Shown: positions 2,485 through 52,346, counted from the first letter of the stretch. The stretch is 64,000 nucleotides of DNA from Nitrospirae bacterium MYbinv3 (GCA_002753395.1 PEAB01000009.1:5127-69126), one strand, 5' to 3'. The notes: a model not told the origin generated them from the letters alone. Translations and numbers: made by a program.

Positions 2485-3783
2485 TCAAGTCTCGCTATCA
2501 TATGCCTTTTCACCGTGCATAGAGAGATCGAGCCCGGCATATTCGTCCTCTTCTGAGGCCCTTAGGCCGACTATCAAGTCTACAATTTTAAAAAGCACAA
2601 TGGAAACCACAAAGACAAAAACGTATGTGGCTACAACAGCTATAAGCTGTTTGACAAAAAGCCCTGCGTTGCCATAAAGCAACCCGTTGTTGCCAGCATC
2701 GTTAATAGCCTTTGAAGCAAACAATCCGGTAGCCAATGCCCCAAACGTACCCCCTACCCCATGCACGCCAATAACATCAAGGGAGTCATCGTATCCGAGC
2801 TTTGGTTTCAGGCTAACCGCCACATAACAGAGCACACCAGCCACCATACCAATAAATATCGACGACATAGGACTGACAAAACCTGCTCCAGGGGTTATCG
2901 CAACAAGACCCGCCACCGCACCGCTGACAGCTCCAAGGGCTGTGGGTTTGCCTCTGTGCATCCATTCAGTAAACATCCATGCCATCGCTGCCATAGCAGT
3001 AGCCGTATTTGTAGTCACAAATGCAACTGATGCCAGTCCACTTGATGAGAGCGCGCTACCGGCGTTAAACCCAAACCATCCAAACCACAACAACGCCCCT
3101 CCCAATATCGTAAGAGGCAGATTGTGGGGCGGCATAGGCTCTCTTCCATACCCCTTGCGTTTACCCATAACTATTACCGCTGCAATTGCAGCAACAGCAG
3201 AGTTAATATGCACAACCGTACCGCCCGCAAAATCAAGCGCTCCGAGCTTGCCCACTATCCAGCCGCCTCCGCATACCCAATGACACAACGGTGCGTACAC
3301 GAACGTCAGCCATAGGGCTGAAAACAACAACAGGGCTGAAAACTTCATCCTCTCAGCAAAAGCCCCAGTAATAAGTGCCGGTGTTATAGCAGCAAACATC
3401 CCCTGATACATCATAAAGAGCAGATGCGGCACCGTCTTTGCGTAATCCGAAGGCTCCTGTCCAACAGAGTTCAAACCAAACCACGCAAAAGACCCGATCA
3501 CACCTCCAATGTCTGGGCCAAATGACAGTGTATACCCCCACAGCACCCAGATCACGCTTACCATACACAGCATAATAAAACTGTGCATGATAGTTCCAAG
3601 TACGTTCTTCCTCCTCACCATCCCGCCATAGAAAAACCCCAGCCCCGGCGTCATCAACATAACCAGCGCTGTGCTTATAAGCATCCAGGCCGTATCTCCA
3701 GTATCAATCTTCGGCGCCTCAGCAGCTAAGACCGCAGTACAAAACATCAGTACAAATAGTGTTGTCAGAATCACCTTTTTCAT
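2485..3783 (-). CDS. amtB: Ammonium transporter
   Basis: DFAGGTVVH, WFGWFGFNAGS, GVHG motifs; twin His present; adjacent to P-II gene. Confidence 0.97.
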   Translation of the reverse strand: MKKVILTTLFVLMFCTAVLAAEAPKIDTGDTAWMLISTALVMLMTPGLGFFYGGMVRRKNVLGTIMHSFIMLCMVSVIWVLWGYTLSFGPDIGGVIGSFAWFGLNSVGQEPSDYAKTVPHLLFMMYQGMFAAITPALITGAFAERMKFSALLLFSALWLTFVYAPLCHWVCGGGWIVGKLGALDFAGGTVVHINSAVAAIAAVIVMGKRKGYGREPMPPHNLPLTILGGALLWFGWFGFNAGSALSSSGLASVAFVTTNTATAMAAMAWMFTEWMHRGKPTALGAVSGAVAGLVAITPGAGFVSPMSSIFIGMVAGVLCYVAVSLKPKLGYDDSLDVIGVHGVGGTFGALATGLFASKAINDAGNNGLLYGNAGLFVKQLIAVVATYVFVFVVSIVLFKIVDLIVGLRASEEDEYAGLDLSMHGEKAYDSET

Positions 3784-6172: not shown

Positions 6173-7174
6173 CTATGTGCGTCTTTTCGATGCATAAAGC
6201 ATCTCAAATAGCGTCATCCCCATCTGTAATGCTTCTAAGTCGTCCCTGGCCGTCCTGTCTAGACCAACGAGAAGCTCCTCTATGGCCTTTGTCTCAGGGG
6301 TGCCGTTTCTGCCATCCTTGATATCAATCTTATGGACTATCTCGGCTATGTTGTTAAGTGCGCCATCTTTAAGGCCAAAGACCCTGATAAGTACCTCAAA
6401 GGTGCAGAGTTCCCCTACGTGTGTGAAATCCCCCCCTCTAATATCAAACGTAACCGTATCCTTATCTATGCCTCCAACTGCCTCGTTGTCTACAAAATTA
6501 AACAACGCAGAGGTATCTATAAACCTCTTGATAAGCCATGCAGATGCAAGTCTATCTACAAAGGGACGCTTTCTTGTAACCCACACCTTTGCCTGATAAT
6601 CTTCCAGACGCTTAGTGGTCAAAAGCGGTATTGCCTGCTCCTGTACATCACTGCCTGCCAGATTTATAATCTCTCCTTTAACGACCACTATCTTCTCTTT
6701 CAAATCCCCTGCCTTGTTTGTTAAGAAAAAATCGATTTTCCTGATATCTTCAAACTCGTTTAAGAGCCTATTGCTCTGATCCATTAGTTTCTTTAGCTTT
6801 TTGGGGACTTTTTCAGAGCTGAGTATCTTGACGCTATTTAGATCTCTTTCAATACCCTGCAGTTTATCTTCTATGGCATCGTAGTCCTTTTCCCTTTGGA
6901 GGTTGAACATGTGAACGATTTCGCTATCCTTTAGCGTCTCAAACCTCTCTATCTTGATAAACTCACCATCACCATTGACAGCCGTCACCTCGCAGAGCAG
7001 CCACTGGAAGAACTCATAATGGGCGTCAGTGTAAGGCAGGACGTAGATCGAGTTTTTAAACTGCAAGGCGCCAGACTTTGCCAACCTTCTCCAGATCTTG
7101 ACCCTATTGTTGACAGGCATCGTCGGCACACTGTAAAAGAAGACAAGCCATTTGTTTTCATAGTCTTGTAACAT
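6173..7174 (-). CDS. chrB: Chromate resistance protein ChrB (N and C domains)
   Basis: RVKIWRRL N-domain; WVTRKRPFVDRLASAWLIKRFID and FDIRGGDFTH...CTFE C-domain. Confidence 0.85.
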   Translation of the reverse strand: MLQDYENKWLVFFYSVPTMPVNNRVKIWRRLAKSGALQFKNSIYVLPYTDAHYEFFQWLLCEVTAVNGDGEFIKIERFETLKDSEIVHMFNLQREKDYDAIEDKLQGIERDLNSVKILSSEKVPKKLKKLMDQSNRLLNEFEDIRKIDFFLTNKAGDLKEKIVVVKGEIINLAGSDVQEQAIPLLTTKRLEDYQAKVWVTRKRPFVDRLASAWLIKRFIDTSALFNFVDNEAVGGIDKDTVTFDIRGGDFTHVGELCTFEVLIRVFGLKDGALNNIAEIVHKIDIKDGRNGTPETKAIEELLVGLDRTARDDLEALQMGMTLFEMLYASKRRT

Positions 7175-17625: not shown

Positions 17626-19824
17626 CTACCTCTGCAACTGTTGCAGGAGGCGCTCGGACTCGGCGAACCTCACCTCCGGCCTGGCCTGAAGTGCAAGCAG
17701 TGTTGCTCTGGGGTCTTTCTCCGGCGGCATGGTGATTATGTAGAGACCCTGCGACTCCTCTACCTTGGCTATAGCAGCGCCCAACTGGCTAATTAACTGC
17801 TCGGCCTGTTCTCTGTCCACGTACTCCTTAAATCTGATGATTATCCTCTCTTGCGTGGGCGACTTCTTAGGCTCAGGATAGGCCAGCCTGATCTCCTCCT
17901 TTATATAAGCGCCCTTTGCATCTGTGATCTTTTTAAGCTCATCTGCGTTGTGGATGATGTGAGGGGTTATGAACACCATGAGGTTTATCTTCTTTGTAGA
18001 CGTGGATTTCTGCTTAAAGAACCAGCCAAGGATGGGAATATCTCCAAGGAAGGGGACCTTTTGGAGGCTTTCCTGCTCCTTTTCCTGGATAAGCCCCCCG
18101 ATGACGACCGTTTCGTTGTCCTTGGCAAAGACGGTTGTCTTGGTTGACCGCTTGGTTGTGGTCGGCCCAACAGAGATGAGGATGTCCGAGTTAGATTCGC
18201 TCTTTACGGAGGATATCTCTTGATAAAGCTCGATTTTAAGATAGTCTCCCTCGGTTATATGCGGGGTGATCTTCAAGGATATACCAACATCTTTTCTCTC
18301 TATGGCGTTGAGTACGGAGAGGGAGCGTGTTGTATCAGTTTCACGTTTGGTTATAAACGGGACGTTTTCGCCCACCATGATCTCGGCCTCCTTGTTGTCA
18401 GAGGTAAGTATCTGTGGTGTAGAGAGGATGTTTACCACACCCTTAAACTCGTTAAGGTTAAACAGGGCGGCGTATCCTGGCACCGACATCGTGGAGGTCG
18501 TTGTAGTACCGTCTGAATTGAAGGTCGTATATGGGATGTTTACAAAGCTGCCCAGACCGCCTATACCAAAACCGCTTAGACCGTATATGATGTTCTGCAT
18601 CGTCGAGGAGTCGATCTGTCCAGAGCCAAAGGTTAGACGCGGCTGGCCATTTTCCTTGACCATAGCCCGCCACTTGGCCCCTAAATCCATGAGGTCGTCG
18701 ATGGAGACCTCTACGATCATGGCCTCAACAAAGACCTGCTTCCTGCGCCTGTCGAGCTTTTTTATGACCTCTATGATGTTCTTGTAGTCTGTCTGGGAGG
18801 CGATGATGACCAGCGAGTTAGTGGCCTCATCCGGTGTGATGAGGATGTCGCCTGAGGCTACAAAGGGCATGGCCTGCGCCTTTTCACCAGCCTTTTCCTG
18901 ACCTGGCTGCACACGCTTGATGAGATTGTCAAGCACCTTTGCAAGCTCGGCTGCGTTTGCGTTTTCTAAGAAATAAACGTTGATGCTGCCCTGTGCCTCC
19001 GGCGAAGGGACGTCAAGCATGTCTATTAACCTTATTATTGGCTCTCGATCGTTTCTGGAGCCAAATATGACCAGTGCGTTAAGCCTTTTGTCTGCCACTA
19101 CAAAGACGTCGCTTTTAGCAGTGGCCTGCTGCTGTGGTGTGCGTTTGTTCCCGCTCTTCTGAAAACCCTCGTTTAGCGCCTTTGCAAGGGGGTCGGCGCT
19201 GGCATTACGCAGGAACACTATATCTGGCTGATCCATCGTTGAGGGCTGGTCTATCTTTTTTAAGATGTGGAGTAACTTTTCCATGTTTGGCCCTGAGTCA
19301 ATTACCAACAGGATATTGCGGGGGCTAAATTCGCCTATGTAGCCGTCCTTTGAGACAATAGGCCTGAGAAACTGCACGGCTTCCTCGCTTGAGAGATTTT
19401 CCAGCTGTATGAGCCTGGCAATATGGCTTTCGTTTATGATGCGCTCATCCGTGGTTGATAACTCAATCCCCTTATGGCGTGCATCCACTGAGGGGACGAT
19501 CTTGTACGTGTTTGCTCCGGCTGAGACAACGGTATACCCCTTTAGCTCCAGAACCGATGTAAAGAGTCTAAAGGCGTCAGCCTTATTAAGAGGCGATGGC
19601 GCTATGATGGTGATCTTACCCTTGAGCTGTTCGTCAAATATGATGTTCTTGCTTGTAAGCTCGCTTACGAATTTCGCAATAGCTGGCAGTTCAACACCCA
19701 CAAAGTTAAACACGATCTTTTCATCTTCCTTCTTTTCTGCAGCTAAGGGGGTACCGCCGCACACCAAAAGGCAAATGAACACTAACGTGGTTAAAACATA
19801 CAGTTTTCTCATCCTTGTCCTCAC
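17626..19824 (-). CDS. gspD: Type II secretion secretin with extra C-terminal domain
   Basis: N0-N3 domains, QVFVEAMIVEV, STPQILTSDNKEAEIMVGENVPF, KVPFLGDIPILGWFF, LMVFITPHII. Confidence 0.93.
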   Translation of the reverse strand: MRTRMRKLYVLTTLVFICLLVCGGTPLAAEKKEDEKIVFNFVGVELPAIAKFVSELTSKNIIFDEQLKGKITIIAPSPLNKADAFRLFTSVLELKGYTVVSAGANTYKIVPSVDARHKGIELSTTDERIINESHIARLIQLENLSSEEAVQFLRPIVSKDGYIGEFSPRNILLVIDSGPNMEKLLHILKKIDQPSTMDQPDIVFLRNASADPLAKALNEGFQKSGNKRTPQQQATAKSDVFVVADKRLNALVIFGSRNDREPIIRLIDMLDVPSPEAQGSINVYFLENANAAELAKVLDNLIKRVQPGQEKAGEKAQAMPFVASGDILITPDEATNSLVIIASQTDYKNIIEVIKKLDRRRKQVFVEAMIVEVSIDDLMDLGAKWRAMVKENGQPRLTFGSGQIDSSTMQNIIYGLSGFGIGGLGSFVNIPYTTFNSDGTTTTSTMSVPGYAALFNLNEFKGVVNILSTPQILTSDNKEAEIMVGENVPFITKRETDTTRSLSVLNAIERKDVGISLKITPHITEGDYLKIELYQEISSVKSESNSDILISVGPTTTKRSTKTTVFAKDNETVVIGGLIQEKEQESLQKVPFLGDIPILGWFFKQKSTSTKKINLMVFITPHIIHNADELKKITDAKGAYIKEEIRLAYPEPKKSPTQERIIIRFKEYVDREQAEQLISQLGAAIAKVEESQGLYIITMPPEKDPRATLLALQARPEVRFAESERLLQQLQR

Positions 19825-35905: not shown

Positions 35906-36145
35906 AGATACCCGCTTTCGCTGGAATGACAGCAATAACTGTTTTAGCAGATATGTCATACCAAGTTGCGTTCATACCAGTATTGGGAGACTCTGTCTCC
36001 CCTCAGACCCCTCTGCAAGGGGACCAGTCCCCTTGACCCCATTATAATACAACATCTTACATTCTGTAACATAAGATACCTCTTTTAATGCAACTTAGTA
36101 TCATTCCTGCGTAAGTAGGAATCCAGAGAGCGTAAAACATAACTA
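35906..36145. repeat. Repeat cluster inside the magnetosome cluster: partial C (35906-35959), A (35984-36040), C palindrome (36103-36122)
   Basis: Direct match to families A and C. Confidence 0.8.
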
Positions 36146-42923: not shown

Positions 42924-43832
42924 TTATATGGTATATGGTTCTATAGAGAGGTTAATACCGGCAACATTGCCGACCTTCTTTTGTATGGTTTCTTCGACCT
43001 GGAGGCCAACTTTGTAGCCATCCTCATAGCTTAGGTCTTGTTTGACTTTTATAACCATGCTCACCCACACACCTTTACCGATCTTTCTTGCTATGACCTG
43101 TGTTACCCGTTCTACTCCTGGGACGAGCTTTGCTAGATCCTCCATGTGATCAATGGTACGTTGATTGATATTAGAGTCCATGACGCCATCTAGGGCGTCC
43201 TTGAGCATGACTACGCTTAACCTGACCAGGTCGATCGTCTCGATGACAGCCACGAGGGGGTCAAGAAAATACAATCCATAATGGGTGCCCAATATAGCCC
43301 CTGCAACCATGGCAGAGGAAATGGCATCTGAGTGATTGTGCGTTGCGTTGGCCAGCATCGATAGTGACCCCCTCTTGTGTCCAACGCACGAGAGATACGA
43401 CGCTATCTTGTAGTTTGCCACCACCGATATCAATGCCGCCCAGAACGCTATAAACTTCGGCTGTTCTATATCACCCTGGAAGGCAAGCCACACAGACTTT
43501 ATAGAGTGGATAAACAGAAACAGTGTTCCGATTATGATCAATACGCTAATGAGCAGTATGGCCACAAACTCTATCTTTTCGTGTCCGTAGGGGTGGTTGT
43601 CATCCGGTGGCTTTCCTGATACTATCACCACAACATAGACCACCAGCGAAGTCATAAAATCCTTCAATGAATACAAGGCATCAACGAGTATTGACTGACT
43701 GCCGCTAAATATTCCAATTACGGCTTTAAACAGCGCTAGCAGAAGGTTTGCAACAACAGCCACCAAGGTTGCCTTGCCTTCGCACTTATAGCACTCTTTG
43801 TAGACTATATGATCGTGTGGCAGTTTGTGCAT
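42924..43832 (-). CDS. mamM: CDF transporter MamM
   Basis: DALYSLKD, HPYGHEKIEF, HNHSDA, DPLVAVIETIDL are MamM-type motifs. Confidence 0.92.
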   Translation of the reverse strand: MHKLPHDHIVYKECYKCEGKATLVAVVANLLLALFKAVIGIFSGSQSILVDALYSLKDFMTSLVVYVVVIVSGKPPDDNHPYGHEKIEFVAILLISVLIIIGTLFLFIHSIKSVWLAFQGDIEQPKFIAFWAALISVVANYKIASYLSCVGHKRGSLSMLANATHNHSDAISSAMVAGAILGTHYGLYFLDPLVAVIETIDLVRLSVVMLKDALDGVMDSNINQRTIDHMEDLAKLVPGVERVTQVIARKIGKGVWVSMVIKVKQDLSYEDGYKVGLQVEETIQKKVGNVAGINLSIEPYTI

Positions 43833-44934
43833 TTACCTCTATCTCCGTGTGGTGGTTGTGCCCCCCACTTTATTGGTGGAGGTGTTGTTATCAACACATC
43901 GCCGGCATCCTTTGCCAATTGACCGGGATTCCTGGGTGTCTTTGATATTACATGACACCTGTCGCATGGACCGTAGTAGCCGTGTGGTCTTGTGGCGGTT
44001 GAGAGGATCATTGGCGCACCCTCCATCTGTGCCACGCCCAGGGCGTTGTTAGTTATGACTCGCACGTCTCTATTTTTACCGCCCCTGTATACGGATACGT
44101 TGGTCTGGTTTATCATTGCAACCTGCCTGGTTGATTTCTCAAATGTCTTTAGGTCCCTGACCTTCAGACCATTGATTGCGGTTATCACATCTCCCGCCAT
44201 AACGCCGGAGTCAGCTGCTGTTAGCGTAACCTCATCCACCAGCACGCCGGAGACGTTATCGGGTATACCGTTTGCCGCAGCCAGTTGAGGTGTCAGGGGG
44301 ACTACCTCTAGGCCTATCCAGTGTCCCTCTTGCAGGATCTTCTCTGTTGTCGTACCTGTGAGGTTGTTGGCAAGGTCGTTAGTCGCTGCGTCAGGGGTTC
44401 CAGGGAACTGTGCCTTTATAGGTGTATTGTTTGCTTGTACGTTGTTTGGCAGATCGGTTCGGGTGTCACCGCTTGATGGCGGCTGTTGTGCCAACGGATC
44501 TTGGGTGCCGTTGAGCGGGTCAGTGTATGGAGTTACAGCCTGCGGATTGTTAGCGTCCGGCTGAATCTGTTCCTGCTGGAGTTGATCAGGCTGAATTTGG
44601 GCATTTACCAGTTGATGCTTATTGGCCTGTCTCCAATTAAAAAGCCGCTTACCGGCAACCAGGATGACATCGGTAAGGCTCCCCTTGGGGGTGGATTTAT
44701 CCAGTTGTGCTTATTGGCCTGTCTCCAATTAAAAAGCCGCTTACCGGCAACCAGGATGACATCGGTAAGGCTCCCCTTGGGGGTGGATTTATCCAGTTGT
44801 CTTTCTCTTTTCTCCATATCCTTTATACCAAGCAAATCACGAACCGGCTCAGGTGGATGCAGATAGAAAAGAAACACGATGGCCAGCACCAGCCCAACGA
44901 TTATGTACTTTACTGCTCTAAAAAAGCCCTTCAT
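43805..44934 (-). pseudogene. mamP: mamP (TM, PDZ, two magnetochromes) frameshifted as assembled by a 92-bp duplication
   Basis: 3-prime part has GHWIGLEV PDZ, CDRCH and CTNCH; removing one 92-bp unit gives a single 1038-nt ORF (345 aa). Confidence 0.9.
44616..44799. repeat. Exact 2 x 92-bp tandem duplication
   Basis: 44616-44707 is identical to 44708-44799. Confidence 0.97.
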
Positions 44935-46045: not shown

Positions 46046-47107
46046 TTACTTCCCGCGTATCTCATCCCAGTACTCATCGGGCATGTCCTTACACAACATC
46101 ATTGCCCCGTTGGCCCCGGCAAACAGTGGTTCCTCTATCTTTATAACCTTTCCGTAGCCGAGTGTATTCCTCATGTAATCCTCTATCTCCTTGCGTAACC
46201 CTATTATCTGGCTGCCGCCGCCGGCAAGGAGGACGTTTTCCTTGAGGTTGTTCTGAAACTCAGGGTCAAATTCGGCTATAAGCGTTCGTATGCCCTCTAC
46301 TATGTCAGGGACTATAATCCTGCAGGCCTGTCGCAGCTCATCGGTCACGTCACGTTTTTCTGGCTTACCTCGAACAGGTACCTCTATAAACACCCTCTCC
46401 CCCTGCGCGGAGATGAAAGCGTTTTCTTCCTTAAATTTCTTAACCATACTGATTGTCAGATTGATGTCCTTGTATTTCTTTATAATCAGGTCGTAAAAAA
46501 CCTGGTCCACGTAATCCCCTGCCTTAAAGGTGGTTATCTGGTCCTCTTCCGAAGGTATCGTGCCGTGCATCCTGCACAGGTCAACCGTACCGGCGCCTAT
46601 GTCGATTATCAGAGCGTTTGAAAGCAGGTTCAACCCATATGCCACAGTAAAAGGTTCCGACGCTATCATTACACCATCGAGGATGCCTCGTGCCACATCA
46701 AGGAGGGCCTTCCTGTTCTTCCTGCTTGCAAGGGCTGGGGCCCCAATAACACCCCTTACGTTGAAATCAACCCCGCTTTCCTGTTCACCCTCCTTGGGAC
46801 AATCAACGAGGTGCTGAAGCAGCGCTTTTGCGACATAGAGAGCGTTCTTATACTCCTTTGATTCCACATCTATATCGGCATACTTGATCATACCCTTCTC
46901 AAAGGGCCTGAAGAGGTTTAACGCCATCCTGTGCTTGATAGCCTCATCGCCAAAAATAACGTCTCTGCCAAACATCTTCCGAGATACAGCATCCTTTGGA
47001 AAACCCACATAACTTGGCACAAATGTCCGGACCCCGTTATCGCATGCTATAACACTCCTTGATGTCCCAAGGTCTATTCCAATATTAAGTACCTTCGCTC
47101 TTGTCAT
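46046..47107 (-). CDS. mamK: Actin-like MamK
   Basis: IGIDLGTSRS, SEPFTVAYG, IDIGAGTVDLCRMHG, LLAGGGSQI, AGANGA. Confidence 0.95.
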   Translation of the reverse strand: MTRAKVLNIGIDLGTSRSVIACDNGVRTFVPSYVGFPKDAVSRKMFGRDVIFGDEAIKHRMALNLFRPFEKGMIKYADIDVESKEYKNALYVAKALLQHLVDCPKEGEQESGVDFNVRGVIGAPALASRKNRKALLDVARGILDGVMIASEPFTVAYGLNLLSNALIIDIGAGTVDLCRMHGTIPSEEDQITTFKAGDYVDQVFYDLIIKKYKDINLTISMVKKFKEENAFISAQGERVFIEVPVRGKPEKRDVTDELRQACRIIVPDIVEGIRTLIAEFDPEFQNNLKENVLLAGGGSQIIGLRKEIEDYMRNTLGYGKVIKIEEPLFAGANGAMMLCKDMPDEYWDEIRGK

Positions 47108-47707: not shown

Positions 47708-47778
47708 TTATAAGAGGGATTTATTCATTTATAAGAGGGATTTATTCATTTATAAGAGGGATTTATTCATTTATAAGA
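47708..47778. repeat. 21-bp tandem repeat, 3 exact copies plus 8 bp
   Basis: TTATAAGAGGGATTTATTCAT at 47708, 47729, 47750. Confidence 0.97.
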
Positions 47779-48033
47779 AGACGGTTTAGTGAAAACAAGT
47801 TATACACCATTTGTCCGTTAAATACGCCTCTTTATCATCTATTTATTTTGTACTAATCGCCTCCTTAAATAAGCAGCTCCTTGCTCCGCTTCGATTACCC
47901 ATCCCTATGTCATTTGCTGTTGTCGCAACTAAAAGAAGTATAACACAGTAAGGCATAAATGTCAAGTATTTTTTTCGGTGGGTGCATAAGGAAGTCGTGA
48001 GGTTTTGGTGTAGAATGGAGGGCTTAGCCATGG

Positions 48034-48200
48034 TAACTATGCTTTTACGCTTTCTGGATTCCTGTTTACCCCTGTTCAAGCCAGGGGCAGGCTGTGGAAT
48101 GACATATTTGGAAAACACTCATTACTGTCATTTCCACAAAAGTGGGGATCCATAGTCTTGAAACCATGAACATTTTTACCCTGCTTTTTAAAGAGGATAC
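48034..48200. repeat. Family C variant with extra hairpin in one palindrome
   Basis: Reverse complement resembles 24561-24695; CCCCTG-TTCAAGC-CAGGGG insert. Confidence 0.7.
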
Positions 48201-48202
48201 CT

Positions 48203-49105
48203 TTAACCAGTGCAGAGTTTCAGGGCGAGCTGTTTGATCTCTCTGGAAAAGGCGGAGACTGCATTGTAAGTTACCAGGGGGGTAGATTTCGCAAGTGATC
48301 TTCTTATTTCAGTGTCTTCCGATATAGACATGAGGACATCGCAGTTGATATCGAGAAACCTGCGTGCGATCCCCTTTATGGCATTACCAACGGTTTTTGA
48401 CTCTTGGAGGTTGTGAACCCTGTTTAGCACCAGAAGTGGGTTGTAGTTGGCAATAAACGCCCGTGCTGACTCTGTTACTTGAGCGTTTATTTCCCTGGCT
48501 TGATTAAAGAGGTCGTCGACGGTTGCTATTTGAGGGTGATTTTCAAAATCCATCGCATCCTCAATGAATTTGACAAGCTCGGATGTTCCTTTCGCCTTGA
48601 AATAGAATAGGAGTTTCTTGTATATCGACGTCTTAATGAAGCTGTATATCTTTATTAACGAGTTAACTTCCGGTGTCGTTATGAGGATCCCCTTGTTGGC
48701 AAAGAACAAAAAATCTACAACACTGTTCGATGAGCCAGCCGCAAGGTCAAGCAGTATGATCTCGGCATTGAGCCTCAGTACCTCTCTGACCAGTCTCATT
48801 TCTTGATGCTCGGACATATTGCTTATACCAGGGATGTTTGATACCCCACATACGACCTTTAGGTTCCTGATACTGGTATCAATTAGTATCGACGATAGAT
48901 TTGGTACCTTCTTTAGTATGAAGTCGTCCAAGTTTACGGTGTCCTTGATACCAAAAAAGGTATGCAGGTTGGCCCCGCCAAGGTCAAGGTCAACAGCTAT
49001 GACCTTTTTGTTTAACATTGCCAGGGCAGCAGCCAGGTTTGCCGATATCGTACTCTTTCCAACACCCCCCTTAGGACCAGCTATGGCTATGACCTGTTTG
49101 TCCAT
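48203..49105 (-). CDS. MinD/ParA/FlhG-family ATPase
   Basis: Deviant Walker A GPKGGVGKS, VDLDLGGANLH, LLDLAAG, ITTPE. Confidence 0.9.
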   Translation of the reverse strand: MDKQVIAIAGPKGGVGKSTISANLAAALAMLNKKVIAVDLDLGGANLHTFFGIKDTVNLDDFILKKVPNLSSILIDTSIRNLKVVCGVSNIPGISNMSEHQEMRLVREVLRLNAEIILLDLAAGSSNSVVDFLFFANKGILITTPEVNSLIKIYSFIKTSIYKKLLFYFKAKGTSELVKFIEDAMDFENHPQIATVDDLFNQAREINAQVTESARAFIANYNPLLVLNRVHNLQESKTVGNAIKGIARRFLDINCDVLMSISEDTEIRRSLAKSTPLVTYNAVSAFSREIKQLALKLCTG

Positions 49106-50856: not shown

Positions 50857-51229
50857 AGTGAAATTCCCTCCTAAATTTTTTATTAGTTATACCATAGCTC
50901 ATGTTACGCAAAAGCACAGTAAAAAGCATTATTATAAAGTTAAGCATAACTCAATGTTCAAGTATTTTGCAAGATAGGGTGCATCTGAAGTGTAATCATA
51001 GTATATCCTCCTTTGTAGCGACAAGCTAAGTGTTTTGAGGAAGGCAGGGATGAATCTATATTTACTATCCTTTGGGTTGTTCATGATGAAAAGCAGGAAT
51101 AGTCCTATGCCAAATGCGAGACTATATCTTTTAAGTGCTCTCCATATCTCTCCTTAAAGAGGTTACCTGTGTATAAACCTATAAGAAACGCCATCATTAA
51201 CACCACCAAAAACTTATTGATGATCTCTG

Positions 51230-51351
51230 GAGCCTCTTGCAAAAGTACATGTTATATAAAATATAGCAAAAAACTCACTTTGTAAGTAGTTGATATTAAA
51301 TAGTATTTTGGGGGCACGATAATTGCCTGATTTGAGTTTTGCAAGAGGCTC
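51230..51351. mobile_element. Family F MITE-like element (122 bp)
   Basis: Perfect 15-bp TIR GAGCCTCTTGCAAAA / TTTTGCAAGAGGCTC; IHF consensus on minus strand 51283-51295; no clean TSD. Confidence 0.7.
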
Positions 51352-51386: not shown

Positions 51387-52346
51387 TCAATAAAGCCCAT
51401 CGCCGTCAATAAACATCTCCTGTGTGTATCGGAGCATGTAGTAGTTGTCCTTAAACTCCCCGATAACCGGTGCAACAACTTGCCCCTTAAGCAGCCTTAT
51501 CAAAAACAACGGGCTGTTAGCGCCGGCAGCAAAACTCAGGGCAGCTCCACCTCCAAAACGCGGGTTCACCTCTATGAATTTAACACACCCCTCGTCTAAG
51601 AAACACTGCACCGTGTTGTGCCCCCTGAGAGAGAGCTCAACGGCAAGCCTCTCTGCCTCTTCAATCAGTTGAGGGTTCTTGCTCGTCCTACCGGTAAACG
51701 ACTCACCGCCAAGGACGGCTATACGCTCACGGGGGACAACCGATATAACCCGTCCATTGAAGTCCACAAATACATCGATAGTGTACTCTGGCGCCTGTAT
51801 AAACTCCTGAATGAGTATATCAGGCGTCTCTTCAAACACCCTCATCAACTCCTTCCTGGAATGGATCAAGAAGATACCCCTACCCCCCTTGCCAGTATGC
51901 GGCTTTGCAAACAGAGGGTAGACAATATCCTTCCTTAATTGCCCTGCATCATACAATTGGGGTACAGAAAAAATCATTTTTGTGCAAAACTCGTAAAACA
52001 ACCGCTTGTCCTGACACGTACTGATCGTCGGGGGTGATGAGACCATCACTGTGGTACCTATCTCAGCAAAACGCTCACGATGTTGTGAAAAGATCAGCAA
52101 CTCCTCATCCCCTTTTGGAATAAGAAGCCTGACCTCACGATCCCTGCATATCTCTAACAATCTGGGTATAAACCATGGATCTGCATCAAAAGGCACAAGG
52201 AGATGTTCATCGGCTACATATAGGGCAGCCGACAGTGGACTGACATCAGCGGCTATGACTCTGCCGCCTCCCTCAGAACTCAGAGCATCTTTGAACGAAT
52301 TAATCAGACCTACCTTACGGGAGGCACTTGTTATCAGGACGTTCAT
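51387..52346 (-). CDS. ATP-grasp protein (carbamoyl-phosphate-synthase-like, surface-polysaccharide associated)
   Basis: FAKPHTGKGG, IQEFIQAPEYTID, FIEVNPRFGGG. Confidence 0.85.
   Translation of the reverse strand: MNVLITSASRKVGLINSFKDALSSEGGGRVIAADVSPLSAALYVADEHLLVPFDADPWFIPRLLEICRDREVRLLIPKGDEELLIFSQHRERFAEIGTTVMVSSPPTISTCQDKRLFYEFCTKMIFSVPQLYDAGQLRKDIVYPLFAKPHTGKGGRGIFLIHSRKELMRVFEETPDILIQEFIQAPEYTIDVFVDFNGRVISVVPRERIAVLGGESFTGRTSKNPQLIEEAERLAVELSLRGHNTVQCFLDEGCVKFIEVNPRFGGGAALSFAAGANSPLFLIRLLKGQVVAPVIGEFKDNYYMLRYTQEMFIDGDGLY

Follow-up and report, generated by a model that had tools for sequence, protein, structure and literature searches.

An exact 92-bp tandem duplication that splits mamP in the Nitrospirae draft genome MYbinv3 is probably technical in origin

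Introduction

Magnetotactic Nitrospirae have been described with the magnetosome gene order man1-mamK-man2-mad10-man3-mamP-mamM-mad31-mamQ-mamB and onward (PMC8353452). The MamP proteins of known structure (PDB codes: 4JJ0 and 4JJ3) and those of Magnetobacterium have a transmembrane (TM) anchor, a PDZ domain and two CXXCH magnetochromes, and their gene sits between man3 and mamM. The mamP locus that is the subject of this article has, when read with one copy of its repeat unit, all of these parts and the same position. It differs in being split by a 92-nt duplication, found in the present record only, and its linker between anchor and PDZ domain is shorter than in the closest relatives (a protein of 345 aa versus 356-376 aa).

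Inactivation by tandem duplication, or at contingency loci, is reversible, and spontaneous non-magnetic mutants of Magnetospirillum arise from rearrangements of the magnetosome island. An exact tandem duplication that shifts the reading frame resembles such systems in that it could in principle revert by loss of a unit, the gene switched off being one of biomineralization. What sets our locus apart is that there is no short-repeat tract, no allele series and no relative that carries the repeat. Lasken and Stockwell are said to have described, in 2007, chimeric junctions that form during multiple displacement amplification (MDA). The likeness is plain enough: the DNA behind our draft had been amplified, and the junctions lie at short microhomologies between nearby sites. 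MDA chimeras, however, are mostly inverted and each is rare, whereas every event described below is a direct tandem copy, and the draft showed no foldbacks.

A third kind of precedent comes from assembly. Chen, Anantharaman, Shaiber, Eren and Banfield (2020; PMC7111523) described local errors in metagenome-assembled genomes (MAGs) that include Ns inserted despite overlap, wrong repeat numbers and the artificial concatenation of identical sequence. The mamP duplication fits this documented class of error, in that the consensus departs from an independent assembly of the same site, genes are broken, identical sequence is doubled and the events recur. The difference is that this paper does not describe the form seen here, duplications in two copies and without Ns, of 90-105 bp and with short homology at the junction, in a metaSPAdes assembly at k = 121.

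The mamP locus in the draft

The window analyzed here is a 64,000-nucleotide stretch of Nitrospirae bacterium MYbinv3 (GCA_002753395.1, PEAB01000009.1:5127-69126), and positions are counted from its first letter. In this record, the mamP locus spans 43805-44934 on the minus strand, a length of 1130 nt; minus one repeat unit, it is 1038 nt, which is 345 codons and a stop. Direct comparison within the window finds 44616-44707 equal to 44708-44799 at all 92 positions, and the Tandem Repeats Finder (TRF) output holds a single array there, of 92-bp period and 2.2 copies, at 44603-44800. An exact repeat of 92 nt cannot be of chance origin. Identity at period 92 runs for 93 nt, the homology past the unit being 1 nt (T). 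The two-copy junction, 44707/44708, reads ATCCAGTTG followed directly by TGCTTATT, with GGATTTATCCAGTTG and TGCTTATTGGCC likewise on its two sides. In the one-copy form, ACCAGTTGATGCTT and ATCCAGTTGTCTTT stand 92 nt apart, as do GCATTTACCAGTTGATGCTT and TTTATCCAGTTGTCTTTC.

The copy nearer the 5' end of the gene (44708-44799) is in the correct frame and supplies codons 46-76. The second copy (44616-44707) is out of frame for the N-terminal ORF and in frame for what follows. The upstream product is an ORF of 109 aa (44605-44934, minus strand) that begins with the ATG at 44934, is correct as far as RQANKH76 and then continues out of frame through the second copy to a stop at 44605; it thus consists of 76 correct and 33 out-of-frame residues, and it contains the TM helix, KYIIVGLVLAIVFLFYL (44860-44910). 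Downstream lies an open frame of 301 codons (43805-44710, minus strand) that holds the PDZ domain (Pfam PDZ_2, 44057-44317) and the two magnetochrome CXXCH motifs, CDRCH (43952-43966) and CTNCH (43817-43831), all on the minus strand. Its first start codon is the TTG at 44494, from which 229 aa would be read to the stop at 43805. The N-terminal anchor and the redox domains are therefore separate in the record, by a frameshift after residue 76, and are one polypeptide in the second assembly introduced below.

Much of this had been anticipated in an initial annotation of the sequence. It had called an exact 92-bp tandem duplication, a split between a 109-aa ORF with the TM segment and a frame with the PDZ domain and two magnetochromes, and a product of 345 aa once one unit is removed; the 92 matching positions out of 92 together with TRF, the ORF analysis and the translation agree with it on each count. 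Its account of the ends of the duplication fared less well. The 7-mer CCAGTTG, which it took to bound the event, does occur where a sequence search places it (44608-44614, 44701-44707 and 44793-44799), and the two copies in the one-copy gene are indeed spaced 93 nt versus a duplication period of 92, so that they are out of register, as the annotation itself had seen in remarking that the junction lacks one A. The 7-mer does not, however, bound the duplication, where the exact homology is 1 nt. Slippage between flanking direct repeats was rejected because of this mismatch between spacing and period, as was a phase-variable contingency locus, there being just two 92-nt units here, and one copy with no repeat in the relatives and in the second assembly.

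MamP and its neighbors

With one copy of the unit, the gene is predicted to encode an intact MamP of 345 aa composed of a membrane anchor, a linker, a PDZ domain and two CXXCH heme domains. Pfam MCR (PF18509) is matched in two stretches with E = 3.9e-14 and PDZ_2 with E = 9e-9, PDB entry 4JJ0 (MamP) matches residues 169-345 with E = 2.9e-41, and both CDRCH and CTNCH are invariant in an alignment of MamP with its relatives. All the defining features are present in the one-copy reading, which by sequence makes this an ordinary MamP, with the predicted role of an iron-oxidizing redox protein in magnetite biomineralization. The mamP identification and domain layout of the initial annotation are thus in keeping with Pfam, the PDB match and the gene context.

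That context is a familiar one. A mamM-like cation diffusion facilitator (CDF) gene lies at 42924-43832 on the minus strand, its start overlapping the mamP stop by 28 nt, and the other neighbors of mamP are a MamK-like actin and small man/mad-type ORFs; further out are an EcsC-like protein, LemA/MamQ, a second CDF, MamI, MamE and a second LemA. The gene order agrees with that published for magnetotactic Nitrospirae, man3-mamP-mamM included, and is a standard man1-mad26 cluster in which the remaining magnetosome genes are intact. The closest MamP proteins, at 64-68% identity over the full length, are those of Candidatus Magnetobacterium casense (MYR-1), XYR, M. bavaricum and nDJH13bin1. Within the duplicated segment of mamP, these sister genomes have no repeat and no length variation at the site; all are one-copy and full-length.

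The cluster has other repeats of its own. A perfect 21-bp tandem repeat of 3.4 copies (TTATAAGAGGGATTTATTCAT) occupies intergenic DNA at 47708-47778, upstream on the man1/mamK side, and could be a regulatory site. Short interspersed elements of ~110-175 bp also lie inside the cluster, at about 48029-48204, 35959-36102 and 51230-51351 (positions carried over from 6731-6906, 18742-18885 and 3565-3686 of the contig of the second assembly). They recur on dozens of contigs at 84-99% identity, and many contig ends carry them. Their appearance is MITE-like, and contig breaks are probably due mainly to these elements.

Two assemblies

MYbinv3 (PEAB00000000) is a Lake Miyun MAG from Supplementary Table 2 of Lin et al. 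2018 (PMC5955933), and the draft amounts to 3,713,224 bp in 175 scaffolds, with 44.44% GC and a shortest contig of 2504 bp. According to that study, cells were enriched magnetically and their DNA was 'extracted and amplified' before sequencing, reads were 2 x 125 or 150 nt, and assembly was by metaSPAdes with --only-assembler (no error correction) and -k 31,41,...,121, scaffolds of at least 2500 bp being kept (PMC5955933). The shortest contig and the largest exact overlap between contig ends, 121 nt (one contig overlapping itself included), are consistent with the 2500-bp cut-off and with k = 121. We set aside the unmerged contig overlaps (15-121 nt) as evidence of anything else, because they are mostly MITE-like repeats at contig ends; the 121-nt maximum alone is informative, since it gives k.

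The second assembly has a different history. Lin et al. 2020 (PMC7602337) used metaSPAdes 3.13 with defaults followed by MetaWRAP re-assembly, sourced their site MY to 'Lin et al., 2018' and noted that a different approach, applied to the same samples, had yielded genomes of >99% ANI to the earlier MAGs. Their nMY_bin4 is 3.93 Mb, has 44.04% GC and is labeled 'Magnetobacterium sp002753395'. We infer that GCA_015232145.1 is nMY_bin4 and that it comes from the same sample as MYbinv3. The two assemblies were compared as assembled sequences, locus by locus, with loci found through exact protein matches.

A protein cluster look-up turned up the one-copy MamP directly: protein P0121 of GCA_015232145.1 equals the de-duplicated 345-aa translation, residue for residue. 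It is encoded on contig JADGAF010000008.1 (L001), which over 21 kb is identical to the window bar four local differences. One is the 92-nt insertion in the draft at 44616-44707, the second repeat copy, which is missing from L001. Another is a 4-nt block in mamK at 46798-46801, GACA in the draft versus CCAG in L001, by which the conserved MamK sequence LVDLAKEG becomes LVDCPKEG, Leu-Ala giving way to Cys-Pro. The remaining two are a 19-nt indel at 51114, within a small repeat-derived ORF, and a 3-nt block at 52112-52114, CTT versus TGG, with a Thr-Arg to Lys-Gly change in an ATP-grasp protein. Leu-Ala is kept in MamK of L001 and of the three closest relatives, leaving the draft as the odd one out, and the error at this site lies with the draft. 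The 34-mer across the two-copy mamP junction found no match in JGI metagenome contigs.

Duplications elsewhere

The whole draft was scanned for exact tandem duplications with periods of 25-1000. Exact two-copy duplications in complex sequence numbered four, and the one in mamP (44616-44799; period 92, run 93, junction homology 1 nt) is the frameshift among them. In a gene for an RND/CusA-like pump, 102 bp are doubled at C64:28456-28659 (run 107, junction homology 5 nt), adding 34 residues inside the conserved TM core (GIAIAIGAMVDASI) of a 1068-aa RND pump. An amidohydrolase has its first 34 residues doubled by a 102-bp duplication at C141:1899-2102 (run 107, homology 5 nt), and in a TP-rich linker the doubled unit is 90 bp, at C125:9492-9671 (run 113, junction homology 23 nt). 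All three of these loci are one-copy in GCA_015232145.1, DNA alignments giving insertions of 102, 102 and 90 nt in the draft, and the predicted one-copy pump of 1068 aa is found there exactly.

A fifth case came from another organism. MYbin3, a MAG of another genus, stems from the same lake site and was published in that 2018 study too, and in the 2.5 of its 2.9 Mb that were scanned there is one event of the same kind: an exact 105-bp duplication in two copies (run 110, homology 5 nt) at L195:15862-16071 (G001:C50:75862-76071), which doubles 35 residues in the conserved N-terminal part of a TrpE/PabB-like enzyme. The one-copy protein, of 506 aa, is on record from an NCBI Nitrospirae MAG, otherwise different by one residue. 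Periods of 25-89 are not represented among the complex two-copy duplications of the draft or of the scanned 2.5 Mb of MYbin3, and 0.7 Mb of loci taken from 45 further MAGs contained no such duplication of any size.

Side by side, the five have periods of 90, 92, 102, 102 and 105, runs of 113, 93, 107, 107 and 110, and, in the same order, junction homologies of 23, 1, 5, 5 and 5 nt. Every run falls between 91 and 121, just under k = 121. That all five should lie within 90-105 has a probability of about 0.003 if sizes are uniform over 25-120. Four of the five are multiples of 3 and so in frame, for which the chance is about 0.045.

Two other regularities were seen. With k = 91 and 101, both in the assembler series, k + 1 gives the periods 92, 102 and 102; as a rule this was rejected, because 90 and 105 do not fit. 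The homology is exactly 5 nt at three of the five junctions. The draft also contains, at C170:21249-21323, a gap of 75 Ns with identical 79-nt flanks in a genuine 75-bp tandem array, which encodes an EREEERKE-type repeat protein. We considered this gap as a case of Ns inserted despite overlap and rejected it, since the second assembly has 71 nt of the true array in its place.

Origin of the duplications

In our judgement, which draws on the assembled sequences, the 92-bp mamP duplication probably has a technical origin, in sequencing, amplification or assembly, and would not be the consensus of the cells. This is favored because the re-assembly from the same site is one-copy and because four similar events, missing from later assemblies, occur in two MAGs. 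A case in a second organism of that site and study implicates the data and the pipeline, and four divergence-free duplications of ~100 bp fixed in one genome, mostly in conserved cores, are biologically unlikely. Real duplications resolved at k = 121 should vary widely in size, so the clustering at 90-105 also counts toward a technical origin. The initial annotation had offered a choice between a scaffolding artifact and a reversible switch. The artifact is the branch now favored, given the one-copy gene in the same-site re-assembly and the recurrence at four other loci; the biological-switch reading is unsupported, with sister genomes that lack the repeat and a 7-mer that is not the junction. 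Scaffolding, though, is not the best name for the route. Random end-to-end abutting of contigs by a scaffolder was rejected as the sole cause, because homologies of 5, 5, 5 and 23 nt are far above chance and there are no Ns; the non-random junctions argue against blind joining of overlapping contigs and suggest that junction-bearing molecules existed at some frequency.

We suppose that the duplications stem from a combination of amplified DNA, metaSPAdes with --only-assembler and a k series from 31 to 121 that comes near the read length, and amplification could have supplied the junctions by template switching in vitro. Our best guess is that a minority of library molecules would carry template-switch junctions at short microhomologies. 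With k greater than the periodic run, the graph would split into one branch for the true allele and another for the junction allele. The true branch would be just k minus the run, that is 8-28 edges, and its contigs would be too short to serve as seeds at the next k. Raw reads would give few k-mers as k neared the read length, and the short true branch would be lost at the highest k while the long junction branch was carried into the scaffolds. Loss of the branch in this way would explain why only runs just below k = 121 appear. By such a route, the assembler may have promoted a minor junction.

There are weak points in this explanation. The default k of metaSPAdes is ~55-77. With a re-assembly k shorter than the 92-nt unit, a true duplication would be a loop in the graph that could be collapsed, and likewise at the other four loci, so a duplication missing from the re-assembly counts for less than might appear. 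With k = 121, above the unit length, a de Bruijn graph would resolve a true duplication and does not normally invent one. The microhomologies of 5, 5, 5 and 23 nt suggest that junction molecules existed, whether in the cells or after amplification, and the in-frame length of four of the five hints at real alleles under selection. Foldback (inverted) chimeras are the commonest amplification artifact, and none is visible in the draft, where inverted repeats with arms of at least 40 nt within 3 kb come down to 7 IS-like pairs only.

That the duplication is a real allele of one sort or another we consider unlikely. It may be a minority allele in the Lake Miyun population, rather improbable in our estimation, that shifts the mamP frame after codon 76 and can revert, the k = 121 assembly having followed it and the re-assembly the major allele. 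The anchor would be cut from the PDZ and heme domains, the redox domains would not be exported and MamP would be lost reversibly and heritably. The junction microhomology, 5-23 nt at the other four junctions, is as expected of template switching, and a graph at k = 121 would hold the junction path only if reads or contigs from an earlier k had supplied it; exact copies mean a very recent event, and tandem duplications are intrinsically reversible. Against this, the reading needs five polymorphisms at appreciable frequency in two organisms, all of 90-105 bp and mostly in conserved protein cores. Relatives show neither repeat nor length variation at the mamP site, the junction 34-mer is absent from the JGI contigs, amplification before sequencing provides an in-vitro source of the same junctions, and the cells were collected magnetically. 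On this biological footing, a subpopulation of an uncultured relative of Magnetobacterium would carry a recent, revertible mamP knockout that gives reversible, heritable heterogeneity in magnetite crystal formation, and the four other duplications would reflect an unusually high rate of microhomology-mediated events of ~100 bp. We regard that as distinctly improbable.

Fixation would make mamP a fresh pseudogene, with the copies collapsed in the re-assembly owing to a k below the unit length, and this we hold to be very unlikely. It has in its favor that the draft, at k = 121, exceeds the unit and is the assembly able to resolve two copies, that the re-assembly at its default k falls below it, and that all five loci differ between assemblies in one direction, as systematic collapse predicts. 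Yet the re-assembly did resolve the 75-bp multi-copy array that is left as a gap in the draft, and has the 33-bp arrays unchanged. Four fixed, divergence-free events of ~100 bp in one genome are implausible, the more so with one adding 34 residues in the TM core of an RND pump, and there is no biological reason for the 90-105-bp range (the uniform expectation given above). The magnetosome cluster is otherwise intact, and magnetic enrichment had been used to obtain the cells. A technical origin remains the reading we prefer.

What the duplication means

The main value of these observations is as a data-quality warning on the MYbinv3 draft. It holds at least four exact duplications that break or lengthen genes (mamP, the RND pump, the amidohydrolase and the TP-rich protein), along with block substitutions. 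The draft is among the 13 representative magnetotactic Nitrospirae genomes in a gene-cluster comparison (PMC8353452), and it appears, from the GTDB species label and a one-genome-per-species library, to serve as the species reference. Gene-content and pseudogene calls made from it, 'mamP disrupted' included, need comparison with the later re-assembly; by itself the draft is no basis for the claim that mamP, or any of the other three genes, is disrupted or lengthened. If the duplication proved real, an uncultured magnetotactic bacterium would have a natural and reversible knockout of its magnetite redox protein. As the sequences stand, this organism most likely makes a normal MamP.
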